Below, in pieces: positions 8,773 to 34,986 of a stretch of 64,000 nucleotides of DNA (position 1 is its first letter; every line of letters begins with the position of its first letter). A program made the translations under genes and the position numbers. Source of the stretch: Nitrospinales bacterium (GTDB taxonomy: Bacteria; Nitrospinota; Nitrospinia; Nitrospinales; JAJDAT01); assembly GCA_046757665.1 (NCBI GenBank), contig JBHHYO010000001.1, forward strand, positions 26,822 through 90,821, read 5' to 3'. Under the pieces are notes generated by a model. It was not told the DNA's origin, made no database searches, and saw nothing but the letters and a program-made list of their open reading frames with translations.

Positions 8773-8822
8773 CTCAAACCCCTCCTCAAGCTTTCGCATT
8801 TCGACAGGGTATAAAAAGATTT

Positions 8823-18029: not shown

Positions 18030-20213
18030 ATGTCCCTCATGGATTTTCAGTCACTCCCATGCCTTGCGATCGTCATCCTGATTGCCGTTTTATCTCGTCT
18101 GCCGTTCCTGCGCTTTCCCATGGACGAGGACATGGCCACCTTCACCTACCGCGCCCGGTTTGCCGCCAGGGGGTTTGAATGGAAACGGGACCTGTTCGTT
18201 TTTTATCCGACTTGCCGGATGCGCCTGTTCGACGCATTGTACGGTCGCCCCGGGGGGGGCGTCTTGCGGATCCGCCTTTTTTTCATGGCGGCTCATATCG
18301 TCACTTCCCTGGCGGTTTATTCGGCCATATTCTTTCTGACGGGAAACCCTTTCGCGGCACTGTTTGGTGGAGCGAGCTATGCGTTTTTCGCCACGGCGCC
18401 CGCGCTGTGCGCGGTTTCGTTCAATTTTGAGCCGTTGTATTTGCCGCTTCTCTTGATCGGCTTGCAACTGCTTTGGCGGGACATGATTCCCCTGGCCGGA
18501 ATCTGTTTCGGACTGGCCGTCGTGCTCAAGGTTTCCACGGGGATTTATGTTCCGGTGATGATGCTGTTTGTCGCCCGTCAATACGGGTACGGAGACTCTC
18601 TGCTTTTCATGGTCGCGGCGGCGGCTCCCGGCCTGATCTCGCACGCGCTGGACTGGAGCATGGGCTATCTGGACCAGGAAGCGAAAAAACAATTCAACCT
18701 GCGCCTGGCCGCCACCCTGCGGTGCGCCAAATTGAAACGGATGTATGGAAGCATTTCACAAGACATCCGGTTGACCGTTAAACAGACCCTGCCCCTGTGG
18801 CTTGCCGGCATCCCCGGCCTGGTGATCGCTTCGACGGAAGCGCCTGGCCTTTCCATTTCCCTGTTCGCCGTGCCGACGATAGTCATGATCCTTTGCCAGC
18901 GCGGGTTTTCCCGGTATCATTACATTCCTTTTATTGGTCTCCTGGCTCTCGGAGCGGGTCCGGCGGTCGATCGGCTTTGGCGGATGCCGGAACCCGTTGC
19001 TTTTGCCGCCGCGGCCTTGCTTGTGGCGGCGACTGTCTGGACGCTCTATCGTCTGGCTCCTTTTTATCTTCGTCCCCTGGAGGCCGAAACCCTGGCGCGA
19101 TACGACAAGTTCGACCAGTTCATTTACCTGCCGTACCTGGGGAAAATCCTCAAACGCCTTGTCCGCATCCGCAAGGAAACGGATCGCCGGCTTTTTGTTT
19201 GGGGAAACTTTATTCAGCTTTATCATGAAACCGGACTCCCCGCCGCCGACCGCTTCGCGCATTACTGCATCGGCCCCTGGGACAGCCCGGTTCTTGAAGA
19301 ATATTTCGATACCGTCATCGGCGGACTGATGCGCCACCAGCCGGTTTACCTGGTCAAGGCCTTTCCCGACCTGGACATGGAGTTGCTGGAGCGAGTCACG
19401 GGTCTGCGGTACCGGCTGATCAAGGTGGCATTGGCGCGGTTTCCGATTTATCGGCTGGCGGGTTTCACGCCGCCCGCCGGCGATCCTCTTGATCTGCCGT
19501 GGCGCGAGAAAATGCGCCTGTTCGATGCGCTGACGCAGGGCGAACACGTTCCCGGTATCGACAAGACGGCGGCCGCCGGATTGAGCAAGACCCTGAACGA
19601 ATGCCGAAAGCTGTGCCGGTTGAATCCGCATGACACACAAGGCATGTGGTTTCTCGCGGAATTGCAGGACCGGCTTGGGCAAGCGGACGCGGCCGCATCC
19701 ACTTGCGAAAAACTGTTGCACGAAAACCCGTCGGACCCACGGCTTCTGCTACTGCTGGCAAAACAAAAGGTAAAGCAAAACCGGCCGGACGAAACGCGGC
19801 GCGCCCGGGAAATCTATAACGATATATGGAAACGGCCGATGCGCCCGCATGAGGACGGGCTTCGCACCCAGGCCGCGGTGGCCGTCGCCGAACTCGACTC
19901 CGGGCGGCGTCCCGAAGCGGAGACGCTGGAACGGTTTCTCGCCCGCGACCCGCGCAACGAATCGTTGGCTTACGCGCGCGCCTCGGCCCTGGAGCGCCGG
20001 GGCAATCGCGAGCAGGCGCGCCGTCTGTTCGAACAATTTACCGCCACCTTTACCAAACCCCCGCTTCAGGCGGCGGCGTGGTTCCGCCTGGCCCGCCTGT
20101 CGCCGCCGGAGCAACGCGAACAAATACTCAAGCAATGCCTGAAGCTCGATCCCGCGCATTCCGGCGCGCAAAAACTCCTGCAAGCTCTGGAGACTTGCCG
20201 TGTCGAAGCGTAA
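18030..20213 (+). CDS. GT-C-like (ArnT/PMT-type) polytopic membrane protein with C-terminal TPR-like domain
   Basis: The N-terminal roughly 330 aa is multi-TM, with an acidic first-loop motif FPMDEDMATF. The C-terminal roughly 250 aa is helical and TPR-like (WFLAELQDRLGQADAAASTCEKLLHENPSDPR...). Confidence 0.72.
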   Translation: MSLMDFQSLPCLAIVILIAVLSRLPFLRFPMDEDMATFTYRARFAARGFEWKRDLFVFYPTCRMRLFDALYGRPGGGVLRIRLFFMAAHIVTSLAVYSAIFFLTGNPFAALFGGASYAFFATAPALCAVSFNFEPLYLPLLLIGLQLLWRDMIPLAGICFGLAVVLKVSTGIYVPVMMLFVARQYGYGDSLLFMVAAAAPGLISHALDWSMGYLDQEAKKQFNLRLAATLRCAKLKRMYGSISQDIRLTVKQTLPLWLAGIPGLVIASTEAPGLSISLFAVPTIVMILCQRGFSRYHYIPFIGLLALGAGPAVDRLWRMPEPVAFAAAALLVAATVWTLYRLAPFYLRPLEAETLARYDKFDQFIYLPYLGKILKRLVRIRKETDRRLFVWGNFIQLYHETGLPAADRFAHYCIGPWDSPVLEEYFDTVIGGLMRHQPVYLVKAFPDLDMELLERVTGLRYRLIKVALARFPIYRLAGFTPPAGDPLDLPWREKMRLFDALTQGEHVPGIDKTAAAGLSKTLNECRKLCRLNPHDTQGMWFLAELQDRLGQADAAASTCEKLLHENPSDPRLLLLLAKQKVKQNRPDETRRAREIYNDIWKRPMRPHEDGLRTQAAVAVAELDSGRRPEAETLERFLARDPRNESLAYARASALERRGNREQARRLFEQFTATFTKPPLQAAAWFRLARLSPPEQREQILKQCLKLDPAHSGAQKLLQALETCRVEA

Positions 20214-22359
20214 GAAAGTCGCCGTCTTCGCCACCGAACCGGTGACCGGAAGACTGGGTGGACTCGGTATTCGCCAGCTCCAGGTGGCTCGCACCCTTGC
20301 AAAATTTTTTGAGGTCCGTCTGTTCACTGAGTACCGGGTGGAACGGCATCGCGAACCTTTTCAAATTCTGCAAATCGATTATGAACAATCCCATACCCTG
20401 GAAGAACCCGTCCGCTGGGCCGACGTCGTGTATTCCAGCCAGCCGGCGGTTGCCCCGTTCACCAAAAAATTCGGCAAGCCCGTCGCCGTGGATTTGCTGG
20501 TCCATGAGTATTTCGAGGACCTGGAGTTCCTGCCGCTCGAAACAATGGAGCCGCTGGAACAATCCGTTTATTTTTCGGACTGCATTTTGCGGCTTTCGCG
20601 CCAGTTGGATATGGGCGATTTTTTTCTATGCTCCAACGAGCGGGAGCGGGATTTCTATCTCGGTGTCCTCACTCTTTTGGGAAAACTGATTCCCGGCACC
20701 TATCAAACGGACCCGCAGTTTCGTTTCCTGATCGACGTGGCTCCATTTGGTCTCCCAAAAAGGGAGCCGAAAAAAGGCAAGAATATTTTACGCGGCGAAA
20801 TCCCCGGTATCGGCCCCAGGGATTTTCTCATCGTCTGGGGCGGGTCGCTTGCCAACTGGTTCGACAGCCTCACTCCCGTGCGGGCCATGGCCCGGCTCAA
20901 AAAAACATGCCCCAGGGCAAAGCTGGTGTTCGTCGGCAACAAGCATCCCGTCCCGGCGGAACAGCCCTCGGCTTTTCAGAAAACCGTCAACCTCGCAAAA
21001 CGCCGCGGCCTTTACGGCAAAAACGTTTTTTTTTACACCGACTGGGTTCCCTACGACCGGCACGATTATTACCTGACCGAGGCGGACGCCGGAATGGTTG
21101 CCTTTCACGATCATCTTGAAAACCACTTTTCGTTTCGCATCCGGGTGGTGGATTACTTTTGGGCGGACCTCCCCGTTTTAACCAACCCCGGAAATGTGCT
21201 GAGCCGTCTTATTGAAAGCAAAAACATGGGGAAGGTTTTTCCGTTTGGGGACGACAAAAGCCTGGCGGAGGCCATCGAATGGATGGCGGCCCATCGGGCG
21301 GGCTGTCGAAAAATGCGCCAGGACATCGCCCGCGAGAAAAAACAGTTTCACTGGGACCGGGTCCTGGCGCCTCTCATCGACTTTTGCCGGTCGCCCCGGA
21401 AGGCCGCCACCCTGTTCGACGGCGGCAGACTGCCCGAACTGGAGCAACTGAAAAAACAGCGCCGCTTCACGCCGGAGCAACTGTTGCGCCTTGTGCCGTC
21501 GCATCCTTACATGCGGCTGATGCTGGCCCGGAAAAGCATCCTGGAAAACAAACCGCAAAAAGCCGCCAGCCTGATAAACGACCATTTGCGATTATTTGGC
21601 TACGGACTGGAAACCGAATTGTTTCGCCTGCCACTGCTGGACGTGCCGGGCGATTTCACCTACGAGGAAATACTTCGCCTGGTCCCCTCGCACCCCTACT
21701 CGCGGTTGATGAGGGCCAGGCTGAAAATGAACGAAAGCAAGTTTCCGCAGGCCGGAAAACTGATTGAAGAGGAAATCGAACTGTTCGGCGAAACCGCCGA
21801 GGCCCTGTTCTGCCGCGGACTGCTTCGCCAACGGCTTGGAGAGCATCGAAAGGCAGTGGCGGATTTCGAGAGGGTTCGCCGGGAAATGCCGGAGCGGATC
21901 GACTGCTGGCTTCCCCTGGCCGGCTCGCTGGCGGAATTGGGAGACACCAAGCAGGCCAAAAAACTCTACGCCCAGGCATGGAACAAGGCTCAGGGCAGGG
22001 GGGGAGAGGGAATCCGCGCCCGCGTCGCGGCGGCCATGGCGAAGCTGGAGGCCCCCCGCAGGCCGGAACATGAAACCTGGGCGCTCTACGAACAACGCGA
22101 CCCCTGCAACGAAGCGCTGGCGTATGCACACGCCTCGGCGCTGGAACGCGCCGGAAAAACCGGTGAGGCCCGCTCCCGTTTCGCATCCTTCACCAAAATT
22201 TTCCGGAATGAAAAAATCCGGGCGGGAGCCTGGTTCCGTCTGGCGCGGCTGTCTCCACAAAACCAGCGGGGGAAAATGCTTCGGGCCGCTTTAAAACTGG
22301 ACCCCTCGCATTCCGCGGCGCGGGAAATGCTACGGCAATTGCGGAACAACGCGGATTAA
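20200..22359 (+). CDS. GT-B-fold (GT4-like) glycosyltransferase with C-terminal TPR-like domain
   Basis: The GTG start overlaps the previous gene by 14 nt. The central region IVWGGSLANWFD...LVFVGNKHP...FFYTDWVPYDRHDYYLTEADAGMVAF is typical of a GT-B C-domain. The C-terminal tail is homologous to that of the 18030 protein. Confidence 0.72.
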   Translation: MSKRKKVAVFATEPVTGRLGGLGIRQLQVARTLAKFFEVRLFTEYRVERHREPFQILQIDYEQSHTLEEPVRWADVVYSSQPAVAPFTKKFGKPVAVDLLVHEYFEDLEFLPLETMEPLEQSVYFSDCILRLSRQLDMGDFFLCSNERERDFYLGVLTLLGKLIPGTYQTDPQFRFLIDVAPFGLPKREPKKGKNILRGEIPGIGPRDFLIVWGGSLANWFDSLTPVRAMARLKKTCPRAKLVFVGNKHPVPAEQPSAFQKTVNLAKRRGLYGKNVFFYTDWVPYDRHDYYLTEADAGMVAFHDHLENHFSFRIRVVDYFWADLPVLTNPGNVLSRLIESKNMGKVFPFGDDKSLAEAIEWMAAHRAGCRKMRQDIAREKKQFHWDRVLAPLIDFCRSPRKAATLFDGGRLPELEQLKKQRRFTPEQLLRLVPSHPYMRLMLARKSILENKPQKAASLINDHLRLFGYGLETELFRLPLLDVPGDFTYEEILRLVPSHPYSRLMRARLKMNESKFPQAGKLIEEEIELFGETAEALFCRGLLRQRLGEHRKAVADFERVRREMPERIDCWLPLAGSLAELGDTKQAKKLYAQAWNKAQGRGGEGIRARVAAAMAKLEAPRRPEHETWALYEQRDPCNEALAYAHASALERAGKTGEARSRFASFTKIFRNEKIRAGAWFRLARLSPQNQRGKMLRAALKLDPSHSAAREMLRQLRNNAD

Positions 22360-22472
22360 CCTCGCGCGAACGAAGCGTTGTCTCTTCAAGATTCTGTTTT
22401 ATCCGCCGAAAAGGTTATAATGGCCCGTTCGCCCCTTTTGGGGTCCTCAAGCAATCGACAGAGGAATCGACG

Positions 22473-25367
22473 GTGAAAATTCTTGTCTGCAATCCGCCCG
22501 GCCGATTTCCCGGAAACCGGTACGTCTGCCCCTTTCCCAGCCGATGGACCAGCATGTTCAAGGGGTATCCGGTTTTCATTTATTACCCTTACGAGTTGGC
22601 CTACCTGTCCGCCCTCCTGAAAAGAGAGTTGCCCGGCGACCAGGTGAAGATGGTGGACGGCGCCTGGCTACGGTTTACCGCCGACGATTACATTCGCTTC
22701 CTGAAACACGAAAAACCCGACTGGGTGGTGTTTGAGGTGGATACCGTCACCTACGGCGAAACGCGCAAAATAGCCGACCGCATCAAATCGGACCTGGGAA
22801 CCCGGGTTATCATGACCGGCCAATACCCGACGGCGTTTCCCGAAAAAGTGGCGGCGGACGGTTATCGCTATGTCTGCATCGGCGAGTTCGAAGCCACCGT
22901 CCTGGACGTGTTGAGGGGGAATGACCCGAAATCCATCGAGGGGCTCCACCCGAACTCCTATCGCAAGGTTCTCGATCTTGACTGGCTTCCGGACCCCGAG
23001 GACGAGGATATCCGCCGCATCGACTACAGTTATTCCGGCGGGCACCGCTGGACGCGCTACCGGGAAATCGAGGTTCACCCGTCGCGCGGGTGCCCTTACA
23101 CGTGCGATTTTTGCGTAGCCGGCACCGTTTACTACGAAAACATCAACTGGCGTTTTCGCAAGCCGGAACGGATCGTCAATGAGATCGAAACCCTGCGCCG
23201 CAAATATCCGCAAATGGAAGGCTGTTTCTTCAACGAAGAAACCCACATCATCAGGAAAAAAAACATTCTGGAATTTTGCGATGCCCTCATCGCCTCCGGC
23301 AACAACGACCTGCATTTCGAGGCCATGGCCAACCACCAGCGGCTGGACGAGGAAATTCTCGAAGCCTTGAAGCGGGCCGGTTACTATAAACTGCGCATCG
23401 GCATCGAAAGCGTGGACGAAGCCACCGGGCAAAGCATCGGCCTGGTCAAGACCCGTCCCGACCGCCTGGAAAAGGTTTTGAAAATCGCCGCCAAGCTGGG
23501 GATCGAAATGTACGGCACCTTTCTCTTCGGGGCATCCGGTTCCACCCGGGAGGGCGACCGCAAAACCATCGAGTTCGGACGCAGAGTTATCTCAAAGGGG
23601 TTGTTGACCAGTTGGCAGGCATCCATTGCCGTCCCCCACCCGGCAACGCCGTTTTACCGAAAAGCCGTCGAAAACGACTGGCTGGTGACCGACAGCCTGG
23701 ACCGCTTCAACGGCATCAGCGACACCGTGGTCAGCTATCCCGATTACCCGCGAGAGCAAATCCTGGAAACGGTGAAGGAGATGGGACGGGAGTTTGAAGC
23801 CGCGCGGTCTTTCGATACCGTTCGCAGGCATAAATCCGTCGCCCAGGAAAAAACCGCTATCCTCAAAAAAGACGAGGCCGTCGTTAATCGAAAACTGGAC
23901 GCCCTGGCTCCGTTGTTCCAAAGCGGCGAAAACGAAAAAACCCTGGAAGCCGCAAGAGCCATCCTCAAGACTTTTCCGCAAGCCCTGACGGCCCGCCACG
24001 CGATCGGCTCCGTTTACAAGCGAATGGGGGATTTGGCCGCGGCCCGGCGGGAGTTCGAGTTCATTGTCGCCACCGCCTTCGATTATGAGGATGCGTTGCA
24101 GTATGCCGCCGGCGCGCATTTTCATCTCGGCGTTATCGGCCTGGCGGAAAATAAAATCGAGGAGGCTCGCCGGCATCTTAAAAACTGTATGCACCTGAAC
24201 CCGGACCACGAGGAAGCCCGGCGGCACTATTGGATGTTGACGGAAACCGGCGGCCGGTGGCTGAGCCTCGAGCGCGCACTGCTCGCCTGGAAGCCGGAAG
24301 AGAAATGCCATTCCGCCATGATGGCGCTGTTCTCCCTTTGCGCGCCGTTGTTTCGGCTTTGGCTTAGACCCCCGCCAGCGGTAGCGCCCGCTCGCAAGAG
24401 GACACCGCTGGAGTTTAAAGTCCTGCACGAGCCCGCCTCCCGCGGCACGCCCGATGTCTCTGTCGTTATCCGCGCCTGCAACGAGGCCGAGTTGCTTGCC
24501 CAAACCCTGGATGCCGTTACGGAGCAGAAGGGAATCGAAAAAGAAATCATTGTGATCGACTCGCAATCCACGGACGCCACGGTGGACATTGCGCGTTCCT
24601 TTTCGGCGCGGGTTGTTGAAATCGAAAAAAGCGGCTTCAACTATGCGGCGGCGCTGAACCTGGGTGTCCGCCTGGCGCGTGGGAAATATGTCGTCAACCT
24701 GAGCGCCCATGCCGTGCCGGTGGACACGCGATGGCTGGCGAACCTGATTCAACCCCTGGCCGAGGACCCCGAAACGGCGGGAGTGCATGGCCGCGAGTTG
24801 CCCATGAGGAACCGGTGCGGCGTATTTGAATGGAAAATCCTTGCCGATTCGTTTCCGGACCGCCGGCTCGAGAAAAAGAACGATTTCTTTTTTTCCAATG
24901 CCAACTCCGCCATGCGCCGGGAGACGCTTGTGGCTTATCCCTTTGACGAATCCGTCGGCTGGGCGGAGGACCAGTTGTGGGCGGACCGGGTGCAGAAAGC
25001 CGGATACAAAACCGTTTACCAACCGGGCGCGGCGGTCTTTCATTCCCACAACCTGACGGCCAAACAGAACTTCGAGCGGTGCTTGAAATATTATCAAACA
25101 CTGTTCGCCACCGTTTACCGCGACCGGGCTGTCGAGGTGCGCGGCGCGTTTCGCGCCTCGCTCGCGGCGCGCGCGGTGTCACTGCGCCGGTTTCTGGTCG
25201 AGCGGCGGTTGATGCGGCCGCTTCCGGCGTTCTTTTACGCGCCGTTTTGCGAATACGTCAATTACCTGGGTTGCGAGATTTCCTGCGCCGCCCGAACCGC
25301 CCCGGAAAAAATTTCCGGTATCCGGGAAAACCGTGTCCGGCAACCTCAAAATCAGGCTGTATCGTGA
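22473..25367 (+). CDS. Tri-domain fusion: B12-type radical SAM + TPR-like linker + family 2 glycosyltransferase
   Basis: 964 aa in one uninterrupted frame. It contains HPSRGCPYTCDFC (CX3CX2C), then TPR-like KRMGDLAAARREFEFIV...AENKIEEARRHLKNCMHLNPDHEEA, then the GT2 segment VSVVIRACNE...IIVIDSQSTDATV from about nt 24453. Confidence 0.85.
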   Translation: MKILVCNPPGRFPGNRYVCPFPSRWTSMFKGYPVFIYYPYELAYLSALLKRELPGDQVKMVDGAWLRFTADDYIRFLKHEKPDWVVFEVDTVTYGETRKIADRIKSDLGTRVIMTGQYPTAFPEKVAADGYRYVCIGEFEATVLDVLRGNDPKSIEGLHPNSYRKVLDLDWLPDPEDEDIRRIDYSYSGGHRWTRYREIEVHPSRGCPYTCDFCVAGTVYYENINWRFRKPERIVNEIETLRRKYPQMEGCFFNEETHIIRKKNILEFCDALIASGNNDLHFEAMANHQRLDEEILEALKRAGYYKLRIGIESVDEATGQSIGLVKTRPDRLEKVLKIAAKLGIEMYGTFLFGASGSTREGDRKTIEFGRRVISKGLLTSWQASIAVPHPATPFYRKAVENDWLVTDSLDRFNGISDTVVSYPDYPREQILETVKEMGREFEAARSFDTVRRHKSVAQEKTAILKKDEAVVNRKLDALAPLFQSGENEKTLEAARAILKTFPQALTARHAIGSVYKRMGDLAAARREFEFIVATAFDYEDALQYAAGAHFHLGVIGLAENKIEEARRHLKNCMHLNPDHEEARRHYWMLTETGGRWLSLERALLAWKPEEKCHSAMMALFSLCAPLFRLWLRPPPAVAPARKRTPLEFKVLHEPASRGTPDVSVVIRACNEAELLAQTLDAVTEQKGIEKEIIVIDSQSTDATVDIARSFSARVVEIEKSGFNYAAALNLGVRLARGKYVVNLSAHAVPVDTRWLANLIQPLAEDPETAGVHGRELPMRNRCGVFEWKILADSFPDRRLEKKNDFFFSNANSAMRRETLVAYPFDESVGWAEDQLWADRVQKAGYKTVYQPGAAVFHSHNLTAKQNFERCLKYYQTLFATVYRDRAVEVRGAFRASLAARAVSLRRFLVERRLMRPLPAFFYAPFCEYVNYLGCEISCAARTAPEKISGIRENRVRQPQNQAVS

Positions 25368-26329
25368 AAATCAGCGTCATCGTTCCCAATTGGAACGGCA
25401 TCCGGTTCGTCGGCATGTGCCTGGACTCCCTGGCAAAATCGCAGTTCGATGATTGCGAGGTGATCGTCGTGGACAACGGCTCCACCGACGGGTCGAGGGA
25501 AATGATCCAGGAAAAATACCCCTGGGTGAGGCTGATCGCGCTTCCGCAAAATCTCGGTTTTGCCCGCGCCTGCAATGAGGGAATCAAGGCCTCGCGGGCC
25601 GAATATGTCGTCCTTCTCAACAACGACATCGAAGTAACTCCCCACTGGCTCCGCGAACTTTACGACGGCATGGAACGGCATCCGGAATGCGGGATGGGAA
25701 CCAGCAAGATGATGTTTCTGCACGACCGCGAAACGTTTTACAATGCGGGAGACTTGTTCTACGCCTGGTCGTCGGGCGGAGGCCGGGGCCAGGGCGAAAA
25801 GGATGTTGGACAATATGAACGGGAAGAACACGTTTTCGGCGCCTGCGCCGGAGCCGGGATTTACCGCCGCGGTTTGTTTCAAACCATCGGCTTGTTTGAC
25901 GAGGATTTTTTTATCTTCGCCGAGGATGTCGATCTCAATCTGCGCAGTCAACTGCGGGGATTCAAGTCGGTTTACCTGCCCCGCGCCAAGGTGTACCACA
26001 TCGGCACGGCCACCGTCGGCCTTTACAGTGACCGGCACATTTATCTTTGCAAGAGGAACGATATTTTAGTCATGGTCAAAAATTATTCCCTCGCCATGTA
26101 CTTCAGGCATTTGTTGTCGATCATCAGGCATCAGTTGGCGGACATCGGCTATTTCTCCAGCCGGGGGCAGGGCGGGGCGCTTTTCAAGAGCAAGTGGCAC
26201 GCCCTCGCCATGATGCCGAAAATGCTGGCCCGGCGCCGTTCCATTCAGCGTTCCAGAACGGCGCCGGACTCGGAAGTGGAACAAATGATAATCACCGACC
26301 GATGCCATGCCCCGCCGGGCTCAAGTTAA
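25364..26329 (+). CDS. Family 2 glycosyltransferase
   Basis: I set the start at GTG 25364 (GTGA overlap with the upstream stop). The listed ORF 24977.. is an out-of-context 5' extension. Motifs: KISVIVPNWNG...VIVVDNGSTDGS...NLGFARACNEG...LLNNDIEV. Confidence 0.85.
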   Translation: MKISVIVPNWNGIRFVGMCLDSLAKSQFDDCEVIVVDNGSTDGSREMIQEKYPWVRLIALPQNLGFARACNEGIKASRAEYVVLLNNDIEVTPHWLRELYDGMERHPECGMGTSKMMFLHDRETFYNAGDLFYAWSSGGGRGQGEKDVGQYEREEHVFGACAGAGIYRRGLFQTIGLFDEDFFIFAEDVDLNLRSQLRGFKSVYLPRAKVYHIGTATVGLYSDRHIYLCKRNDILVMVKNYSLAMYFRHLLSIIRHQLADIGYFSSRGQGGALFKSKWHALAMMPKMLARRRSIQRSRTAPDSEVEQMIITDRCHAPPGSS

Positions 26330-26391
26330 AGGGCTCGGATTCCGTTCAGGAAGAGAAAACCCTTGCGTTTCCTGGTAGCCGAAATAATATC

Positions 26392-28476
26392 ATGAAGATT
26401 CTTTTGCTCTATCCTCCCGACCGGGCGTTCCCGGCGGTTCCCTACGCCAGCCTGCCGGCCCTGGCGCCCTGTCTGCAACAGGCGGGCCACGAGGTCGTTC
26501 TCCGCGACGCTTCCCTGGATGTTTTTCATCGGTTGATGAAGGAGGAAACGCTTTTCCGCTATCTCAAGACGTATCGGGAGCGGTTGCGCGTTCTGGAAGC
26601 GAAAGTTTCCCTGAATCCCGATGAAGCGGAAGAATACAAGGCTCTCGTTCAAACTCTCGCGGTTCCCGAGGAAGCATTGCGCCGGGTGACCGCTTCCATC
26701 CGGATCATGCAAAGCGAGGAGTTTTACAAGCCCGAATCGTTCACGCGGGCCTGGGATGATTTGCGGAGCGCCATGCGGTTTTATTACGGACCGAACCCCA
26801 TCGACTCGCCGAATTACCCCGACTTTGCCGACCGGCTCCGCAAAGCGTTAAGCGCCCGGTGGATCGACCCCGTTGCCGACGTTTACGGTCAAGGTTACAT
26901 CGAGAGCCTGTTGCGGGAAACACCCGACCTGATCGGAATCAGCATTCCGTTTATCGTGTCTTATTACGAAGCCATGAAGCTGGCGAAACATATCCGTGCC
27001 CGAGCCCCACGCATCCCACTGGTGATCGGCGGCTCCCTGATCGACACTTACAAGGACGTTATGGCCGCCGATCCCGGATTATACGATCTTTTCGATTATG
27101 CCATGGTGGGCGAGGGAGAGGAAGCCGTCTGCCGGCTAGCCGCGGCGCTGGAAAACGGCGCCGGCCTGGATGCGGTGCCCAACCTGTATTACCGGGACGC
27201 CGCCGGCGCGGTGAAACATACCGCGAAAAAGTCCGTGGAGGATTTGAACGTGCTTCCGGCTCCGGATTTCACGGGACTGCCGCTGGAAAAATATCTTTCG
27301 CCCGAACCGATCGCCAGTTTCCAGACTTCGCGTGGGTGTTACTACGGCAAGTGCACGTTTTGCTCCCTGTCTTTCCGCGATAACTTCCGCCTTCGGGACC
27401 CGCGGCGGGTTGTTCAGGATATGATCGACATCCACGCGAGCACGGGCATCAAGACATTTCTTTTGTGGGATTCCCTGTCGCCACCCAAGACAGTGCGCGC
27501 CGTCGCCGGTCAGGTCAGGGACGAGAACCTGGGGTTTCACTGGTTCGCCGAGACCAAGTTTGAAAAAACGTATCTGAATAAAAAGTTCCTGCAAGACCTT
27601 GGAGAGGGCGGATGCCGGTTCCTGCAATTCGGAATGGAGTCGGCCAGCGAGCGCATCCTCGACCTGATCGACAAAGGCAACAAGAATGCGGAGATCGACG
27701 TCATGCTGGACAACATGGCGGCGGCGGGAATCGGCGCCAGCTTGACCTGGTTCATCGGTTTTCCCACGGAAACCGAGGCGGAAGCCGACGCCAGTTACGA
27801 TTTCATCGAGGCCCGCCGGCACAAGGTGACTCTTTCCGCCTATACCGGAACATATAACCTGTTGCCCGACCAGCCGTTGTTTTACGACCGGGACAGTTAT
27901 GGGATCGACATCCATCGCAACGCCGATGGCGGCTATTATTTCACTTACCGGGACGGTTCCGAGCCTTACGACCGGAGCGAGCGCAACCACGCTTTTCTGG
28001 CGCGCGGCGATGCGGAGCTTCTCAAGCATGGCGCATACATTCTTTATTCGACCTATTGCCCGGACCGTATTCATAAACTGTCGGGCGCGTATCGGGTGGG
28101 TCCCCTGGTCCGCGACGTCGAGAACCTTGAGGAAGCGGTGGTGCAACGCACGCCGGAGACGCACATCACCGCTTTTGCCAGGGACCCGATCAAGGATTTT
28201 AACGCGCCGCCTTCTCCCGTAAAACTGGTTTACCAGTCCATGACCGGGGAGGTTTTTCGGCTTCGGGGAAGGGAGATGGCCGTCCTTGATGCCGGCGCGG
28301 AGCCTGTGTCGCTCGCCGCGATTGGAAAAAGAATCGGCATGGACTGGCGGGAACTGGAGTCCATTGTTCATACCCTGACGAATCGCGGGTTGCTGAAATT
28401 CATTGTGAATGGGAACAGCCCGGACGCGCAAAACCGGGTTCTTGAGAAAATTGAAGCCTGCGTGGAGTCGCCATGA
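26392..28476 (+). CDS. B12-type-domain radical SAM protein, paralogue 1 (CX4CX2C; C-terminal wHTH/RRE-like domain)
   Basis: I set the start at ATG 26392 (MKILLLYPPD). The cluster motif SRGCYYGKCTFC lies at 27337-27363. The protein is collinear with the next gene along its whole length. Confidence 0.85.
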   Translation: MKILLLYPPDRAFPAVPYASLPALAPCLQQAGHEVVLRDASLDVFHRLMKEETLFRYLKTYRERLRVLEAKVSLNPDEAEEYKALVQTLAVPEEALRRVTASIRIMQSEEFYKPESFTRAWDDLRSAMRFYYGPNPIDSPNYPDFADRLRKALSARWIDPVADVYGQGYIESLLRETPDLIGISIPFIVSYYEAMKLAKHIRARAPRIPLVIGGSLIDTYKDVMAADPGLYDLFDYAMVGEGEEAVCRLAAALENGAGLDAVPNLYYRDAAGAVKHTAKKSVEDLNVLPAPDFTGLPLEKYLSPEPIASFQTSRGCYYGKCTFCSLSFRDNFRLRDPRRVVQDMIDIHASTGIKTFLLWDSLSPPKTVRAVAGQVRDENLGFHWFAETKFEKTYLNKKFLQDLGEGGCRFLQFGMESASERILDLIDKGNKNAEIDVMLDNMAAAGIGASLTWFIGFPTETEAEADASYDFIEARRHKVTLSAYTGTYNLLPDQPLFYDRDSYGIDIHRNADGGYYFTYRDGSEPYDRSERNHAFLARGDAELLKHGAYILYSTYCPDRIHKLSGAYRVGPLVRDVENLEEAVVQRTPETHITAFARDPIKDFNAPPSPVKLVYQSMTGEVFRLRGREMAVLDAGAEPVSLAAIGKRIGMDWRELESIVHTLTNRGLLKFIVNGNSPDAQNRVLEKIEACVESP

Positions 28477-30560
28477 AGGTTCTATTGATATACCCGCCGG
28501 ACAGGGGACTGCCGTCGGCTCCCTACGCCAGCTTGCCCGTCCTGGGCGCCGCCCTGAAACAGGGAGGCCACGAGGTGGTCCTGCGCGATATCAATCTTGA
28601 AGTCTTCCATGCGTTGGTGCGGGAGGAAACAGCGCTCCATTATCGCGAAGCTTTTGCCGGGCGGTTGCGGGACCTGGAAACCAGGCTGTCGTTGAATCCG
28701 CGCGAAGCCGAAGAATACAGCGCTCTCACGCAAATACTCTCCATTCCCGAACAGGCGCTGGGAAACACGTCTTCCGCCATCCGCGTTATGCAAAGTCCCG
28801 GCGATTTCTACAACCCCGAAAAATTTAACCGGGCGCACGACGATCTGGCGGACGCCATTCGATTTTATTATGGACTGAACCCCCTGGAGTCGGCTGAACT
28901 GCCCAATCTGGTTGACCGGCTTTTCGCCGCGTTGGACGACCGGCCGGTCGATCCTGTAGCGGACATATACCGGCAAAAGATTGTTGCGGATATTTTGCGT
29001 GAGCAACCCGGCCTGATCGGACTCAGCATCCCGTTCATGATTTCTTACTATGAAACCATGAAGCTTATAAAACATATCCGGGAGCAAGCCCCCGCCATTC
29101 CCATAGTGATCGGAGGGGTCATGCTGGAAAACCGCATCGACCCCCTGGCAACCGATCCGCGGCTTTATCAACTGTTTGATTATGTCATCGTTGGGGAAGG
29201 CGATTTGGCTCTATGCGAGCTGGCCGCGGCTTTGGAAACGGGAGGCGATCTGGATTCGGTGTCCAACTTGTGTTACCGGTCGTCCGACGGCACGGTGAAG
29301 CACACGGAAAAAAAGTCGGTGGAGAATTTAAACGATCTTCCGTCACCGGACTTCACCGAACTGCCGCTGGAGAAATACCTTTCGCCTGAACCCGTTGCCA
29401 GTTTCCAGACTTCGCGGGGATGTTACTATGGCAAGTGCACCTTTTGTTCCCTGTCCTTTCGCGACAACTTCCGCCTTAGAGACCCGCGGCTGGTTGTCGA
29501 GGACATGATCCATGTTCACGAGGTTACAGGCATCAAAATGTTCCTGTTGTGGGACTCGCTGTCTCCGCCCAGGACGCTCAAGTATATCGCCCGGGAAATC
29601 CGGGAGAAAAATCTGGGGTTCCACTGGTTTGCCGAGACCAAGTTTGAAAAGGTTTTTCTAAAACCCGAATTTGCGAAAAAACTTTACGAAGGCGGATGCC
29701 GCGTTCTCCAGTTGGGGCTGGAGTCCTCCACCCAGCGCATCCTCGACCTGACCGAAAAAGGCAACCGGATCGAGGACGTGGACATAATGCTGGACAATAT
29801 AGCGGCGGCGGGAATATTGAGCAGTGTGTTCTGGTTCATCGGATTTCCCGGCGAAACCGGGGAAGAGGCCCGGCGGACTTATGATTTTATCCAAAGCCGG
29901 CGCGCCAAAATCACGCTTTCGCCCTATACCGGGACCTATACCCTACTGCCCGATCAGCCGTTGTTTCATCAACCCGGCCGCTATGGCATACAAATCCACC
30001 GCGATGCAGACAGCGGCAAATACCGGTACACTTACGCGGACGGTTCCCCGCCTTGCGACCTGACGGAACTGGATTATGCGTTTCAATCCCGCAGTGACGC
30101 AAAACTGCTCACCCACGGCGTTTATCTGCCATACGCCGTGAACAATGCGCCGGGACTGAAAAAACTGACCGGCAACAACCGGCTGGGATTCCTGGCCCTC
30201 GAAATCGAAAGTCTGGACGAAGCGGTGGCGCAACGAACACCGGAAACTTATATTTATTCCTTCGCCAGGGACCCCATCAAGGATTTTGCCGCTCCGCCCC
30301 AGCCGGTAAAGCTGGTCTACCAAGCTGTTACGGGAAAAGTTTTTCGTCCGCGAGGCAGGGAGATGGCGGTTTTGGAAGCGATGCGTCAACCCACGCCGCT
30401 GTATTTGTTGACGGAAATCCTCGACATGGACTGGGAGGAGATCAAGCAAATTGTCGAAAAACTTTCCAACCGGGGGCTGATCAAATTCCTGGTCGGTTTA
30501 TCCGCTTACCAGGACTGCGGCAGACCGGATGAGGCTTTTTCCGAAATGGTTCAGCCGTGA
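28473..30560 (+). CDS. B12-type-domain radical SAM protein, paralogue 2 (CX4CX2C; C-terminal wHTH/RRE-like domain)
   Basis: It has an ATGA overlap with paralogue 1 and starts MKVLLIYPPD. SRGCYYGKCTFC lies at 29421-29447. 695 aa. Confidence 0.85.
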   Translation: MKVLLIYPPDRGLPSAPYASLPVLGAALKQGGHEVVLRDINLEVFHALVREETALHYREAFAGRLRDLETRLSLNPREAEEYSALTQILSIPEQALGNTSSAIRVMQSPGDFYNPEKFNRAHDDLADAIRFYYGLNPLESAELPNLVDRLFAALDDRPVDPVADIYRQKIVADILREQPGLIGLSIPFMISYYETMKLIKHIREQAPAIPIVIGGVMLENRIDPLATDPRLYQLFDYVIVGEGDLALCELAAALETGGDLDSVSNLCYRSSDGTVKHTEKKSVENLNDLPSPDFTELPLEKYLSPEPVASFQTSRGCYYGKCTFCSLSFRDNFRLRDPRLVVEDMIHVHEVTGIKMFLLWDSLSPPRTLKYIAREIREKNLGFHWFAETKFEKVFLKPEFAKKLYEGGCRVLQLGLESSTQRILDLTEKGNRIEDVDIMLDNIAAAGILSSVFWFIGFPGETGEEARRTYDFIQSRRAKITLSPYTGTYTLLPDQPLFHQPGRYGIQIHRDADSGKYRYTYADGSPPCDLTELDYAFQSRSDAKLLTHGVYLPYAVNNAPGLKKLTGNNRLGFLALEIESLDEAVAQRTPETYIYSFARDPIKDFAAPPQPVKLVYQAVTGKVFRPRGREMAVLEAMRQPTPLYLLTEILDMDWEEIKQIVEKLSNRGLIKFLVGLSAYQDCGRPDEAFSEMVQP

Positions 30561-30730
30561 TTCAATCGGCAATGACGGGTACGCTCGTGCCATGATTTCC
30601 TGGTTCTTCTCCGCCGCGTGGTTCTTATGAAATTACTTTGAATTATTTTCCGGTTTATGTTTAGATGCAAGGCAGAAGCTGACCGGAAAAAAAGTTTGAT
30701 TCCTCCAGAAACCTCCTAACCGCTTCAAAA

Positions 30731-33700
30731 ATGCCGTACCCCGCCACTGGCCTCAAAAATTTTTCTCTGGACTTTAAAAACTCGTTTCGCCGTCCGCGGG
30801 ACGGGGAAAAAATCGAATTGTCGCCGCCATCGGGGTTTGCCTTGATGCCCGAAGGCGGCCTGGTTGTCGCCGACGACTTCAACCACCGCATCCAGCTTTA
30901 CGACCGGGAACACAACCTGCAAACCTGTTTCGGGGAAAAGGGAAAAGACAACGGACAGTTCATGTATCCCCGGGGGATTGCCGTCGATTCCGAGGGACAT
31001 ATTTATGTCGCTGACAGCTGGAATCACCGTGTGCAAAAGTTCGACGCATCGGGAAACCATTTGTTGACTTTTGGCGATCATGGGGAAGGGTGGGGACAGT
31101 TGAACGAGCCTTACGATGTTCTGGCGCTTCCCTCGGGCGAAATCGTCGTCGTGGAGCGATACAACCATCGAATCCAGTTTTTCGACGCCGGGGGACATTC
31201 CCTCGGTTGGGTTGGAGCCCGCGGGACCGTGCTGGAAGACCGGCTGGCGCAGATTTATGAAACGCCTCCCCATCTTTTTCCCCGGCCGGTATTTGAATTT
31301 CCAACCTCCATCGCGCAGGACAGCCTGGGAAACTTTTTCGTCGCCGACAGCGGCAACCATAGAATCGTCAAGTTCGATCCGCGGTGGAACCTCGTTGGAG
31401 TCATTGGCGAAAAGGGCGGCGAAGCCGGGCAATTTCAATACCCTCTCTGCGTCGCAACCGGTCCAAACGATTTGTTATACGTTGCCGACCTGAATAACAA
31501 TCGGGTTCAGGTGTTTACCTCGCAAGGGCAGTTCCTGACGGCGATTGATGAAGGCGGCGAAAAAATCCAAACGCCCTGCCTGACTCTTGTGGATGCCGAG
31601 GGACGACTGTACGTTGGGTTGACTTTCAACCCCGCCGTTCTGGTTTTTCAAACCTCATCCCGCTCTCCGGATTCTATTTATAAAAGCTTCGCCGAAGAGC
31701 AAGCGAAGGATTTCCGGGTGTTCTTTTCCCGGGGAAACTTTCACGAAGAAACCGGGTCGGCGGACCTCGCGCTGGAAGCCTACGGCAAGGCCGTTTCCAT
31801 TTTAGCGGCTCAAGGCGGTCAGGATTCTTTTGACCCGTCTTTCGGTTTCGAGCAAGCCGCCTGTCTCCCCTTGCGTTTTTGCCGGGCGGCGGCTCAGGGT
31901 CCGCACGACCGGGAAATTGAGTCCTCGCTTCTGCAATGTCTGGATATTTATGATGCGCTTACCCGGAGCCTCTACCAAAAAATTCTGGATCGCAAGAAAG
32001 AATGGGACGACGCGGCGACAATTTATTTTCGGGAATTGATCCGCGAGGAAAACCTGATCCTGAACCAAAAAGAGGACCCCCTTGCGTTCAACAAAAAACT
32101 TTATTCGGCGGAAAAGGCGGACAAAACATTTTTCCGCGAAATCCGGATTTTGTTTTACTACTACAGGAAGGTTTGTGAGCAAAAGGCGGAATTCGTTCTT
32201 GCCTTGTTACATTCCGAATTGTCCGCCCAGGGCGTGGAAAAACTCGTGGCCTCCCTTGAATCCAGGTACCACGCCATCTGCGGCGAAATCAACGTGATTC
32301 TGGATGACAAGGAAAACCATGAGGTCGCCATGGTCGGCGCTTTGTCTGGCGCGGAAAATAACGAGGAGAAATGGGAGAGCTTTCGCATCAAATCCATGCT
32401 CAACGCCAGGCTCATGGACAGCCTCAAGCATTTTTTGTTTGAGTTGCGTTCTATTTTGAAAAGTATCAAGGCGACGGCCTTGAAGTTTCAAAACGCTTCG
32501 GTAAGAAACTGCTTGACGGAACTGTTCATCAAAGTGCCCGTCGCTTCCCTGATTCCCTCCATTTTGTTACGGATTCAGGAAGATTGGGACACGCTCCCCT
32601 CCCTGGAAACGGAACACAAGGAAATTCTGGATATCTGGCTTGCGGGGCATCGGGGGCAAGGAGAAGTGCGGCGTGTCGACAACGATTTTTTCGCTCCGGT
32701 TCCTTACGATGTTGAGGATGTGGATACCGGGGACATTGTGCGTGCCCTGTTGATGGAGGGGGCGCCGCCGGCAAAAACCGAACAGGGGCTGGCTTGCGGT
32801 AATGAAATTTATCCGCCGGAATCCCTCGGAGACGATGCCGAAAACATCTGCGCACAGTTGCGGGCCGTGCTGGACAATTCCGCGACATATGAGAAAAAAA
32901 CCGCAGAGACCTTCAAGGAGCTGGAATCTTTTTCCCTGCAAAAGGCCGACCTGGAAACCAAACTGAAGAACGTCAATCCTCGCGACAAAAAAGAGCCTAT
33001 CCCTTTGCGCAACAACCTTCAGGTCGTGGAATTCCAGATCAACCTGTTGAAACGGATGATCAAGACGTTGGAAATCAATGAAATGAACAACCTGCTCAAG
33101 CTGGTTCTCGGCGCCGCGTTGGCGGCTGTTGCTCCCGTCTGCCGCGACCGCAAGCCGACCCGGGATTTGTTCGATGCGCTACGATCTTACCGGGACGATT
33201 TGCAGGCAAGGACCGCAAGCGCCACCCTGCAAATGAAATCCGTGGTCCTGAAAAAGGGCGCCCTGGAAAAGCAACTGAAAGAAGAACTTTTCAAACACGA
33301 TATCAGTCATATCGATCAATCCGTTAAAATCAAGGACGGCCTTTTAAAGGCGCAAATAGAATTGAACCGCTTGACGGCGGATTTGGCCCGCCGTTTCAGG
33401 CCTAAAAACCTCCTGGACAAATTATTCGATTTCGTTTCGCAAGCCGGGGAAGCCGCATCCGCGCAGGACGGTTTTCGCATGAAGTTCAAGTTTGTGTCCG
33501 GAGGGCTGGGTTTGGACGCCGGACACTTTCTTTATCCTCTCGGCATTACGCACACTCCGGAAGGCGATTTGCTGATAGCCGACTATGACCGTCATTTGAT
33601 CCGCAAATTTTCCCGGGAAGGGGTCTACCGCTTCTCTTTTGGGGGGATGGGCAATGCCCGGGGGGCTTTTAACTCGCCCGCCGGGGTGCAGGTCGATCCG

Positions 33701-34336
33701 CGGGGAAACATCTATGTGGCGGACCAACTGAACCACCGCATCCAGAAACTCGCGCCGGACGGGAAATTCCTTTTGGCTTTTGGCGACCGGGGAAAACAGG
33801 AAGAGCGGCTGGGGGAAATCTATTCTCTTTCCATGGATACGGAAAACAATATCTGGGTGGCCGATCCGCAACATCACCGCGTGGCTATTTTCTCCCCGCT
33901 GGGGGAATACCTGCGCGCCATCGGCAAGCAGGGAAAGCGCCCCGAGGAACTTTGCGAGCCCGTCAGCGTCTGTTGCCTGGAAAACGGCGATTACCTGGTG
34001 GGAGACCGGTCGGAGTATGTTTTAAAACGTTTCAACCCGAAAGGCGAGCTGTTACACGTCCTCAAAAAAGACATTCCCACCATCGACGTGGTATTTTTCC
34101 TGACCTCGGATCCCCGCTACGGAATCTTCGCCGCGGAGTCGCTGAACAAACGGCTTCTCCGGCTGAATTCCAAACTGGAGCCGGTCTTTATCTATCATTG
34201 TCCCGGCGACCGTGCCGGCGGATTTGGAATTATCGGCGGATTATCCATTCACGGCGACACCCTGATGGTGACGGATTCGGGAAACCACCGGATCCAGGCT
34301 TTTGAGTTGCAACTGAAGGATCACGTCTCCACTTAG
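30731..34336 (+). CDS. 1201-aa protein with N- and C-terminal NHL-repeat beta-propellers flanking a roughly 600-aa helical/coiled-coil region
   Basis: NHL units are present at both ends, for example GQFMYPRGIAVDSEGHIYVADSWNHRVQKFD and GAFNSPAGVQVDPRGNIYVADQLNHRIQKL. The middle is rich in heptad-like E/K/L sequence. I see no obvious signal peptide. Confidence 0.85.
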   Translation: MPYPATGLKNFSLDFKNSFRRPRDGEKIELSPPSGFALMPEGGLVVADDFNHRIQLYDREHNLQTCFGEKGKDNGQFMYPRGIAVDSEGHIYVADSWNHRVQKFDASGNHLLTFGDHGEGWGQLNEPYDVLALPSGEIVVVERYNHRIQFFDAGGHSLGWVGARGTVLEDRLAQIYETPPHLFPRPVFEFPTSIAQDSLGNFFVADSGNHRIVKFDPRWNLVGVIGEKGGEAGQFQYPLCVATGPNDLLYVADLNNNRVQVFTSQGQFLTAIDEGGEKIQTPCLTLVDAEGRLYVGLTFNPAVLVFQTSSRSPDSIYKSFAEEQAKDFRVFFSRGNFHEETGSADLALEAYGKAVSILAAQGGQDSFDPSFGFEQAACLPLRFCRAAAQGPHDREIESSLLQCLDIYDALTRSLYQKILDRKKEWDDAATIYFRELIREENLILNQKEDPLAFNKKLYSAEKADKTFFREIRILFYYYRKVCEQKAEFVLALLHSELSAQGVEKLVASLESRYHAICGEINVILDDKENHEVAMVGALSGAENNEEKWESFRIKSMLNARLMDSLKHFLFELRSILKSIKATALKFQNASVRNCLTELFIKVPVASLIPSILLRIQEDWDTLPSLETEHKEILDIWLAGHRGQGEVRRVDNDFFAPVPYDVEDVDTGDIVRALLMEGAPPAKTEQGLACGNEIYPPESLGDDAENICAQLRAVLDNSATYEKKTAETFKELESFSLQKADLETKLKNVNPRDKKEPIPLRNNLQVVEFQINLLKRMIKTLEINEMNNLLKLVLGAALAAVAPVCRDRKPTRDLFDALRSYRDDLQARTASATLQMKSVVLKKGALEKQLKEELFKHDISHIDQSVKIKDGLLKAQIELNRLTADLARRFRPKNLLDKLFDFVSQAGEAASAQDGFRMKFKFVSGGLGLDAGHFLYPLGITHTPEGDLLIADYDRHLIRKFSREGVYRFSFGGMGNARGAFNSPAGVQVDPRGNIYVADQLNHRIQKLAPDGKFLLAFGDRGKQEERLGEIYSLSMDTENNIWVADPQHHRVAIFSPLGEYLRAIGKQGKRPEELCEPVSVCCLENGDYLVGDRSEYVLKRFNPKGELLHVLKKDIPTIDVVFFLTSDPRYGIFAAESLNKRLLRLNSKLEPVFIYHCPGDRAGGFGIIGGLSIHGDTLMVTDSGNHRIQAFELQLKDHVST

Positions 34337-34986
34337 CCCTTTTGGGTGACTCCCACTCTTTTGCAGAACTCGGCGATGCGGCATGAATCGCAAAGCGGCG
34401 ATAAGGGTTTGCAGACGTTTTGCCCAAAAGCCACCAGCAAGCCGTTGAGTTCCTTCCAGAATTTTTTAGGCAATTTTTTCCTCAAAGCCTGTTCCGTGCT
34501 GTCCGGCGACCGGGTGGCGACGTAGCCCCACCGGTTGACGATCCTGTGAACATGGGTATCGACGCAGATTCCCGGTTTGTCGTAGCCCAGGATCACGGTC
34601 AGGTTGGCGGTTTTTCTGCCGACACCCTTGAGCTTCAGAAGTTCGTCTATGGAATCGGGAACCCGCCCGCCGTAGTTATCCAGCAGTCGCCGGCAGATAT
34701 TGTGCAGGGTTTTGGTTTTCACCCGGTAGAAAGCCGCCGGGTAAATGGCGTTTTCAATGGATCGGGGGTCGAGACCGAGCATTGCGCCCGGCGTGTCGGC
34801 AAGGGCGAACAGGCGGCGAGTGGCGGCGTCCGTCACGGCGTCCCGCGTACGCAGGCTGAGGATGCAACTCACGAGAACCCGGAACGGTTGTTTCTCCCGG
34901 CCGGCACGGACAACTGCTGGAGTTTCCCATTGCCGGGCGGCTTGTTTGACGAGATGGATTGCCTGTTCAATTTGTGATTGGGTCAC
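34333..34986 (-). CDS. nth: Endonuclease III (DNA glycosylase/AP lyase)
   Basis: It has the HhH-GPD motif LLKLKGVGRKTANLTV and the C-terminal 4Fe-4S motif CKPLSPLCDSCRIAEFC. Confidence 0.92.
   Translation of the reverse strand: MTQSQIEQAIHLVKQAARQWETPAVVRAGREKQPFRVLVSCILSLRTRDAVTDAATRRLFALADTPGAMLGLDPRSIENAIYPAAFYRVKTKTLHNICRRLLDNYGGRVPDSIDELLKLKGVGRKTANLTVILGYDKPGICVDTHVHRIVNRWGYVATRSPDSTEQALRKKLPKKFWKELNGLLVAFGQNVCKPLSPLCDSCRIAEFCKRVGVTQKG

Follow-up and report, generated by a model that had tools for sequence, protein, structure and literature searches.

What role does a large NHL-repeat protein play at the end of a cluster of glycosyltransferase and radical S-adenosylmethionine (SAM) genes? 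The question is raised by a Nitrospinales contig (JBHHYO010000001.1), of which we analyzed a stretch of 64,000 nucleotides, called the window here. An earlier reading made from the letters alone (the sequence-only reading) had placed in it a 1201-aa protein, encoded at 30731-34336 on the plus strand, with two NHL propellers bracketing a helical core, and had suggested that this protein might be the scaffold, the substrate or a lyase-type tailoring enzyme of the machinery encoded upstream. The open reading frame (ORF) proved to be exactly as read; it starts with ATG, and the position of this start codon is common to the window protein and a syntenic Nitrospinota homologue, P0001 (MPYPATGL and MPHPPTGL).

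Pfam, a PDB sequence search and an AlphaFold2 model gave the whole ORF a single layout: NHL propeller, helical core, NHL propeller. The Pfam family of the 28-residue NHL repeat (PF01436) matched with E = 1.7e-63 (208 bits, 5 independent stretches), and the full-length model, computed from a 29-sequence family alignment, had a mean predicted local distance difference test score (pLDDT) of 89.4 and a predicted template modeling score (pTM) of 0.88. On this model, the window protein is an NHL-repeat beta-propeller protein in which two six-bladed propellers flank an all-helical core of ~600 aa. Both propellers of the sequence-only reading were confirmed, with borders at about aa 13-306 for the N-terminal one (30767-31648; Pfam, AlphaFold and Foldseek) and about aa 914-1195 for the C-terminal one (33470-34315; Pfam and AlphaFold). 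The modeled N terminus leads straight into the first propeller, residues 13-18 forming a beta-strand immediately before blade 1, and a helical insert of ~17 aa (aa 166-174 plus a loop) lies between blades 3 and 4. The NHL motifs of the C-propeller are partly degenerate; the propellers themselves are ordinary NHL domains. No signal peptide or transmembrane segment was seen by hydropathy or in the AlphaFold model (no dedicated signal peptide predictor was used), which upholds what had been read from the sequence. The single 19-residue window that reaches a Kyte-Doolittle value of 1.7 (aa 595-613) sits in the confidently modeled helical core, in helices 588-599 and 603-613. By hydropathy, the protein also lacks the signal peptide or membrane anchor of secreted or surface NHL proteins of the PknD sensor domain type. 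It appears to be soluble and cytoplasmic in type.

The helical core begins with TPR-like hairpins and a linker (aa 312-392, 31664-31906), assigned from AlphaFold and from a family profile match to TPRs. The TPR-like unit proper covers aa 312-359, with modeled helices at 312-322, 327-339 and 343-359, followed by one at 372-387, and the profile of the family's middle region matched consensus TPR proteins across profile positions 7-52 (E = 2.8e-12). The remainder of the core is dominated by eight modeled helices of 39 to 51 residues in two groups of four (aa 393-584 and 702-904). The first group (helices 393-443, 454-492, 498-537 and 544-584, of 39 to 51 residues) is encoded at 31907-32650 together with three short helices at aa 588-638, and the second (helices 702-745, 755-799, 807-853 and 859-904, of 44 to 47 residues each) at 32831-33445. 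Between them lies a small strand-containing insert (aa 641-700, 32651-32830; modeled strands within 643-693) in which the alignment shows an invariant PxPxDxE. Judging from helix lengths and the short connecting loops, the long helices probably form two four-helix bundles. The two groups are not an internal duplication, a possibility ruled out by an hhalign probability of 0.1%, and their invariant motifs are EDPxxFN, KEKNEExMV and IQEDW in the first and DKKxPIxxxNN...FQxxLxRRMIxTLEINExxN in the second. Single residues of the core that are invariant include R472, E531, E617, P656, E662, D752, F768, Q769, R775 and N783.

The core had been described as coiled coil or helical. It is indeed all helical and ~600 aa long, but the confident single-chain model packs the long helices into one compact core, and their heptad periodicity is weak to moderate (hydrophobic occupancy of a and d positions, 47-75%). 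The core modeled by itself was about as confident as within the whole protein (pLDDT 88.3, pTM 0.87). Foldseek searches with it found no significant match in the PDB (best E = 0.01, TM-score ≤ 0.22) and nothing significant among the BFVD viral models, and sequence searches of Pfam, NCBIfam and the PDB found no match except the one TPR-like unit. As modeled, the helical core is an orphan domain without a structural relative in the PDB or BFVD.

Next, we looked into how far this architecture extends. A word-indexed protein search with the helical core alone gave three relatives, and a HMMER search with a core profile gave 46 representative clusters (50% identity) in 1.84 billion, 27 of them at E < 1e-30. 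Most of the core-profile matches have 1100 to 1266 aa and share the placement of the core, so that the order of propeller, core and propeller is a conserved one. Every member with a taxonomic name belongs to Nitrospinota (Nitrospina sp., Nitrospinaceae and Nitrospinales) and carries no annotation beyond "hypothetical protein," "NHL repeat-containing protein" or automatic labels such as YncE or K11997. Across the family, the N-propeller is the most conserved region, with a mean pairwise identity of 57%, compared with 37% for the C-propeller and 28% for the helical core, and it carries invariant aromatic and acidic residues (DDF, DSW and ERY) immediately before the NHR turns of blades 1-3.

A two-gene version of the family, suggested by split genes in loci L001 and L006 and in the JGI contig of P0002, was rejected, as the splits fall at different places. 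The one in L001 (~9940-9960, L001 coordinates) is a one-base frameshift at a T-run and points to a sequencing error or else to a pseudogene. Locus L007 carries a frameshifted N-terminal fragment (4927-5618, aa ~11-216) of a second NHL gene directly upstream of the full copy; the fragment shares 55-60% identity with the window type and the full copy 40%, a pattern that suggests two paralogous subtypes, one of them decaying.

We then compared the gene's surroundings across 11 distinct loci found by exact-protein and genome scans and 80 further loci from metagenomes. The helical-core gene was present in 72 loci, all Nitrospinota, and neighbors were counted over the 49 loci that have at least 4 kb of upstream DNA. 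The two commonest neighbor types were family 2 glycosyltransferases (GT2; 39/49 loci) and a membrane protein that combines a GT-C-like region with TPRs (32/49). Some radical SAM enzyme was present in 34/49 loci (31 by motif plus three Cx4Cx2C cases) and a methyltransferase in 8/49; at least one of these four kinds of gene was found in 48/49. The NHL gene is the last of the cassette at every locus, and its immediate same-strand upstream neighbor is a radical SAM gene (25 loci), a GT2 gene (20) or a methyltransferase gene (12). The link to upstream machinery drawn by the sequence-only reading is thus borne out, but it is wider and looser than was proposed. The tandem radical SAM enzymes whose co-occurrence with the protein had been proposed as a check, here the window's B12-binding type of 691 to 695 aa, stand beside the gene in only 9/49 loci.

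Moreover, the composition of the cassettes changes while the adjacency persists. The window, L002 and L013 share the order GT-C-like/TPR, GT1-TPR, radical SAM-TPR-GT2, GT2, two B12-binding radical SAM genes, NHL gene, nth. In L008-L012 and most metagenome loci, a GT-C-like/TPR gene, with or without a GT2, radical SAM or methyltransferase gene, precedes the NHL gene, which is followed by a convergent spermine-synthase-like gene and PEPCK. L003-L006 and L016 have glnA and PhzF, with or without a radical SAM-SPASM gene and a Methyltransf_24 gene, then the NHL gene, and a B12-binding radical SAM gene 3 to 8 kb downstream. Sulfatases and a radical SAM gene precede the NHL gene in L048, and in L068, which holds the most distant member (27% identity), rpe, hom, thrC and the NHL gene are followed by a Methyltransf_24-TPR gene and two B12-binding radical SAM genes. 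Adjacency to tailoring enzymes is thereby kept in at least five different flanking contexts, and between the window cluster and the neighborhoods of L003-L006, the NHL gene and the B12-binding radical SAM gene are the sole shared genes. Furthermore, the NHL proteins of L024 and L082 are 99.3% identical, and L024 alone has an APS kinase gene and a sulfotransferase gene inserted (8259-9702) between GT2 and the NHL gene; this difference is very recent cassette turnover.

In L003 (12661-15562), and likewise in L004, L005, L006 and L016, two apparently secreted proteins with hydrophobic N termini are encoded between the NHL gene and the downstream B12-binding radical SAM gene: an ankyrin-repeat protein of 540 aa (minus strand) and a protein of 189 aa with an Lcl_C domain.

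In the window itself, a co-directional series of genes for FkbH, a GT2, the TPR membrane protein, GT1-TPR, radical SAM-TPR-GT2, a second GT2 and two B12-binding radical SAM enzymes runs up to the NHL gene, which is its last member. The endonuclease III gene (nth, 34333-34986, minus strand) comes next, convergent with the NHL gene and overlapping it by 4 nt, in keeping with the end-of-cluster position first noted. Three upstream products on the plus strand combine a tailoring-type domain with TPRs: the 727-aa GT-C-like multipass membrane protein with C-terminal TPRs (18030-20213; Pfam and hydropathy), a 719-aa GT1-TPR protein (20200-22359; Pfam) and a 964-aa fusion of an HpnJ-like radical SAM domain, TPRs and GT2 (22473-25367; Pfam and NCBIfam). 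In the first, Pfam found TPRs only; its N-terminal ~350 aa make up about 10 hydrophobic segments, the first of which is followed by FPMDED, and relatives have weak Pfam matches to GT87 (E = 0.002) and PMT_2 (E = 0.004). We call it GT-C-like because of this motif and the weak similarity of its relatives. Hydropathy alone leaves its topology ambiguous, and the side of its TPRs was argued from a fusion: in L009 and L039 the protein continues past the TPRs into a GT2 domain without a further hydrophobic segment, so that the TPRs are probably cytoplasmic.

The two B12-binding radical SAM enzymes that follow on the plus strand, of 692 to 695 aa, are paralogous and were assigned by Pfam, NCBIfam and homology. 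The first is encoded at 26392-28476 (the ORF is listed from 26047, and homology begins at about 26392) and the second, of 695 aa with a Cx4Cx2C cluster motif, at 28473-30560. The latter is about 60% identical to the radical SAM enzyme near the NHL gene in L003-L006. Their nearest named families in NCBIfam are peptide/protein C-methyltransferases and P-methyltransferases, with all scores below the cut-offs. All NHL-linked B12-binding enzymes of 691 to 695 aa (the two of the window, L003 15620-17695 and L008 100-2184) have CYYGKC[TS]FC, that is, Cx4Cx2C and not the canonical Cx3Cx2C, which the other radical SAM enzymes of the cassettes have.

Two further ORFs of the window are of note in their own right. 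One, at 4578-6761, fuses a pyruvate-kinase barrel, a PUA_2 domain and an ATP-sulfurylase, which fits the sulfation genes (APS kinase, sulfotransferase and sulfatases) in the cassettes of other loci. The other, at 11196-12365, encodes a radical SAM-SPASM protein beside PIG-L deacetylase, hexapeptide acyltransferase, MaoC, SDR and FkbH genes and is weakly similar (23.5% identity) to the L004 radical SAM enzyme that precedes the Methyltransf_24 and NHL genes. An Rfam scan of the whole window found no RNA family.

An alignment of upstream regions from 10 loci, whose intergenic DNA is otherwise unrelated, revealed a promoter-like motif in front of the NHL gene. In the window it reads TTGAAT-N17-TTAGAT, with a TG upstream of the second hexamer (30638-30666, plus strand), and ends 64 nt before the ATG; the family consensus is TTGnnT-N12-TrTGnTTwrAT. 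The motif is kept across lineages with 35-47% NHL-protein identity and lies in the gap of 85 to 275 nt before the gene. It is unique in the 64-kb window with up to one mismatch allowed and was found exactly once in each of 8/12 loci, just upstream of the NHL gene; in L011 it overlaps the annotated start of that gene. It looks like a -35/extended -10 promoter, though its second hexamer is without the usual A at position 2. A generic sigma-70 promoter and terminator scan was uninformative and did not pick it up, because this position is T rather than A. Going by the motif, the NHL gene is probably transcribed separately from the enzymes, possibly at a higher dosage. The sequence-only reading had held that an independent promoter with uncorrelated expression would speak against a tie to the upstream genes. 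The gene is indeed preceded by the conserved promoter-like motif just described, yet because gene order is very conserved alongside it, we take it to speak for separate dosage and not against a functional link. The presumed 5' leader (30667-30730) contains two CCTCC motifs and no GGAGG-like ribosome-binding site, and its last 15 nt (AACCGCTTCAAA) are conserved with L002. A precursor-peptide ORF in the 170-nt gap upstream of the gene was rejected: the gap holds only ORFs of 7 to 12 codons, which are unconserved between loci.

How, then, might the protein and its neighbors be related? TPRs occur in six classes of cassette enzymes, namely, the GT-C-like membrane protein, GT1, radical SAM-GT2, the B12-binding radical SAM enzyme, a 481-aa radical SAM enzyme and the Methyltransf_24 enzyme, with weak matches only in the last (TPR_6, E = 2.5e-4, below the cut-off) and in the 481-aa enzyme (TPR_2, E = 0.006). 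The NHL gene is the sole constant non-enzyme gene beside these variable tailoring enzymes. The reading that we favor, tentatively and with a little less than even confidence, is that the NHL protein is the common partner, as acceptor or as docking hub, of the TPR-tagged tailoring enzymes encoded upstream. The TPRs of the cassette enzymes would dock on the double-propeller protein. In the preferred version, the NHL protein itself would be the acceptor of sugar, methyl or sulfate groups, in a pattern that differs between strains, and its own promoter would yield more of it than is made of the enzymes; in a weaker version, which we judge to be nearly as likely, it would be an unmodified docking hub. 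The acceptor is favored because a separate promoter is typical of substrate or structural genes beside their modifying enzymes and because of the families nearest to the B12-binding radical SAM enzymes, below cut-off as those scores are. The binding of TPRs to propellers, the modification of the NHL protein and its expression level are what we infer in drawing this picture. A fuller form of it is possible but unlikely: Nitrospinota would have a strain-variable protein-modification system in which interchangeable TPR-guided glycosyltransferases, B12-binding and SPASM radical SAM enzymes, O-methyltransferases and sulfotransferases decorate one large cytoplasmic double-propeller protein, with a core that would have a new fold and serve to display the modification sites or to bind the TPRs.

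Several points weigh against a partnership of this kind. Its two central elements, binding and modification of the NHL protein, are ones we infer, and the loci rest on ORFs called crudely as the longest ones and labeled by BLAST to Pfam-checked seed proteins. L003, L006 and L076 are without a tailoring enzyme immediately upstream. Many of the loci come from related marine lineages, so that some of the conservation in gene order may reflect shared ancestry and not selection. GT-C enzymes normally act at the outer face of the membrane, and a cytoplasmic acceptor therefore fits only the soluble enzymes. By analogy, moreover, the cassettes resemble a full lipid-linked sugar pathway of the ArnC/ArnT type, which would not need an NHL protein, and the N-propeller, as the most conserved region, is more readily explained by an invariant ligand or activity than by a surface with variable decoration.

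The analogy with lipid-linked sugars leads to an alternative in which the protein is an unmodified scaffold that organizes the cytoplasmic enzymes and the GT-C-like membrane protein while they build or tailor a lipid-linked sugar for an envelope acceptor. We regard this as unlikely, though worth keeping in view. The minimal cassette (the GT-C-like membrane protein and a 312-aa GT2) resembles ArnC/ArnT or Ppm1/Pmt logic, the cassette enzymes bear TPRs, and two propellers with a helical core give many docking surfaces, so that a constant partner could be held by the constant N-propeller and the changing enzymes by the variable parts. A scaffold should, however, be made in stoichiometry with its enzymes, yet a conserved motif of promoter type belongs to the NHL gene itself; within 10 kb, loci of the L003 type lack both GT-C-like and GT2 genes, and the short cassettes show no evident flippase. 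The same motif serves the opposite argument, that there is no functional link: the protein would have a conserved housekeeping or structural role in Nitrospinota and simply happen to be encoded at the edge of a hypervariable glycan island. Most loci are indeed also syntenic downstream, with spermine-synthase-like, PEPCK, PdxA and RsmA genes, cassette content differs between near-identical NHL proteins, and in GC content the NHL gene goes with the ilv housekeeping genes downstream of it (0.53-0.54) and not with the glycosyltransferase/radical SAM cassette (0.57-0.59 at 18000-28000; the window's first 8 kb have 0.45-0.50). What makes this explanation, too, rather improbable in our view is that adjacency to radical SAM, methyltransferase or glycosyltransferase genes is kept though both flanks change, between the window (nth and ilvN), the L003 type (glnA and PhzF), L048 and L068, and that the window cluster and L003-L006 have only the NHL gene and the B12-binding radical SAM gene in common.

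Two other explanations give the propellers a role of their own. The N-propeller might be a catalytic six-bladed propeller of lyase, lactonase or hydrolase type that acts on the cassette's product, as its far greater conservation (57% versus 28-37% elsewhere), the invariant DDF, DSW and ERY and weak whole-protein Pfam matches to SGL, Phytase-like, Arylesterase and Vgb_lyase could suggest. The sequence-only reading had named peptidyl-alpha-hydroxyglycine alpha-amidating lyase (PAL) as one such enzyme, and we checked the rat PAL sequence against PDB 3FVZ and compared it by alignment with the two propellers in each of 20 family members. In the N-propeller, the columns of the zinc-binding His585, His690 and His786 hold K/R, L/V/M and C/S/G instead, and in the C-propeller they hold mostly L/F/Y/T. 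At the positions of Tyr654 and Arg706, the N-propeller has a gap and Leu and the C-propeller has variable residues, the blade register of the alignment being imperfect. The PAL histidines follow a Pro where the inner strand of blades 2, 4 and 6 begins, whereas no blade of either propeller has a His after the conserved Pro (the residues there in the window N-propeller are S, R, Y, T, L and C). A PAL-type lyase is therefore unsupported, with no PAL zinc or catalytic residue in either propeller. Identity with ScyF or an SGL-type enzyme was rejected as well: the ScyF model NF035926, the best NCBIfam match, reached 280.1 bits against a curated cut-off of 350, in four separate stretches, and SGL (PF08450) scored 53.8 bits over the whole protein with no stretch passing singly (the best covers profile positions 151-216 of 246). 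The window protein appears to lack the catalytic signatures tested, and its closest sequences and structures are non-enzymatic TRIM-NHL domains, so that we consider an enzymatic role quite improbable.

Those same matches recommend the protein as a bacterial TRIM-NHL analogue, that is, an RNA-binding posttranscriptional regulator with a dimerizing coiled coil and an RNA-binding propeller. In PDB sequence searches, Drosophila Thin matched with E = 4e-65 and TRIM71 with 1e-56, PAL only with 7e-7, and Foldseek matched the N-propeller to solved TRIM-NHL domains, among them those of Thin and TRIM71, with E = 1e-19, TM-scores of 0.86-0.91 and 31-33% identity; a helical region also adjoins the propellers. 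TRIM71 and Brat bind RNA through an electropositive propeller face. The N-propeller, in contrast, is acidic in 20/20 members examined (isoelectric point [pI] 4.6-5.7, net charge -5 to -17; pI 4.9 in the window protein), and the C-propeller is mostly neutral or acidic, all by whole-domain charge. No RING, B-box or filamin domain was found in the window protein by Pfam (E ≤ 0.01), and the helical part is a compact single-chain core (pTM 0.87-0.88) without a match to coiled-coil structures. Of the analogy with TRIM-NHL proteins drawn at first, the propeller fold stands and the rest does not, and a role of this kind is highly improbable.

Should TPR-guided radical SAM and glycosyl-transfer enzymes have this protein as their target or hub, it would stand for a new type of bacterial protein-modification system, and the partner reading, if true, would also supply substrates for several orphan B12-binding radical SAM enzymes. 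If that reading is false, the family keeps its value as a clean marker of the phylum and as the source of a new domain. Fast-evolving cassettes such as the one tied to this constant family usually point to a surface or interaction determinant. In the ocean, nitrite is oxidized mainly by Nitrospinota, and to our knowledge almost nothing is known of their phylum-specific cell biology. No paper on such a Nitrospinota double-propeller protein was found, and the double-propeller architecture, the orphan core, the restriction to one phylum, the conserved promoter-like motif and the linkage to TPR-tagged radical SAM enzymes and glycosyl-, methyl- and sulfotransferases are not described in the literature searched.

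Among known systems, the TRIM-NHL proteins (Drosophila Thin/TRIM32, TRIM71/LIN-41, TRIM2/3 and Brat) share the six-bladed NHL propeller and an adjoining helical region with the window protein. They differ in having one propeller rather than two, RING, B-box and filamin domains where the window protein has none, and an antiparallel dimeric coiled coil where the single-chain model of the window protein shows a compact core; its acidic N-propeller sets it apart as well, and its family is bacterial and found in only one phylum. PAL (PDB 3FVZ) likewise has an NHL-type six-bladed propeller (Foldseek rank 24, E = 2.4e-11, 21% identity) but differs in the five residues that both window propellers lack. 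ScyF, from the scytonemin cluster, resembles the window protein in its NHL repeats and in being encoded in a biosynthetic cluster; its 376-position model, however, matches the window propellers piecewise and leaves the helical core uncovered, and ScyF is a secreted PEP-CTERM protein, whereas the window protein has no signal peptide. The likeness to OGT/SPINDLY and TMTC1-4 concerns the neighboring enzymes and not the NHL protein and consists of a catalytic domain joined to TPRs. TMTC1-4 are O-mannosyltransferases that combine GT-C and TPRs (PMC7801869). Like the protein encoded at 18030-20213, TMTC proteins are multipass membrane proteins with an acidic motif after the first transmembrane segment and C-terminal TPRs, but their TPRs are luminal, whereas those of the window's protein are probably cytoplasmic and its GT-C Pfam matches weak. 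Flagellin and S-layer glycosylation islands, finally, also place a constant gene for a large protein, with its own promoter, beside fast-changing glycosyl-, methyl- and sulfotransferase genes; the window protein differs in having no secretion signal and in being neither flagellin nor a known S-layer fold, and radical SAM enzymes are prominent among its neighbors.

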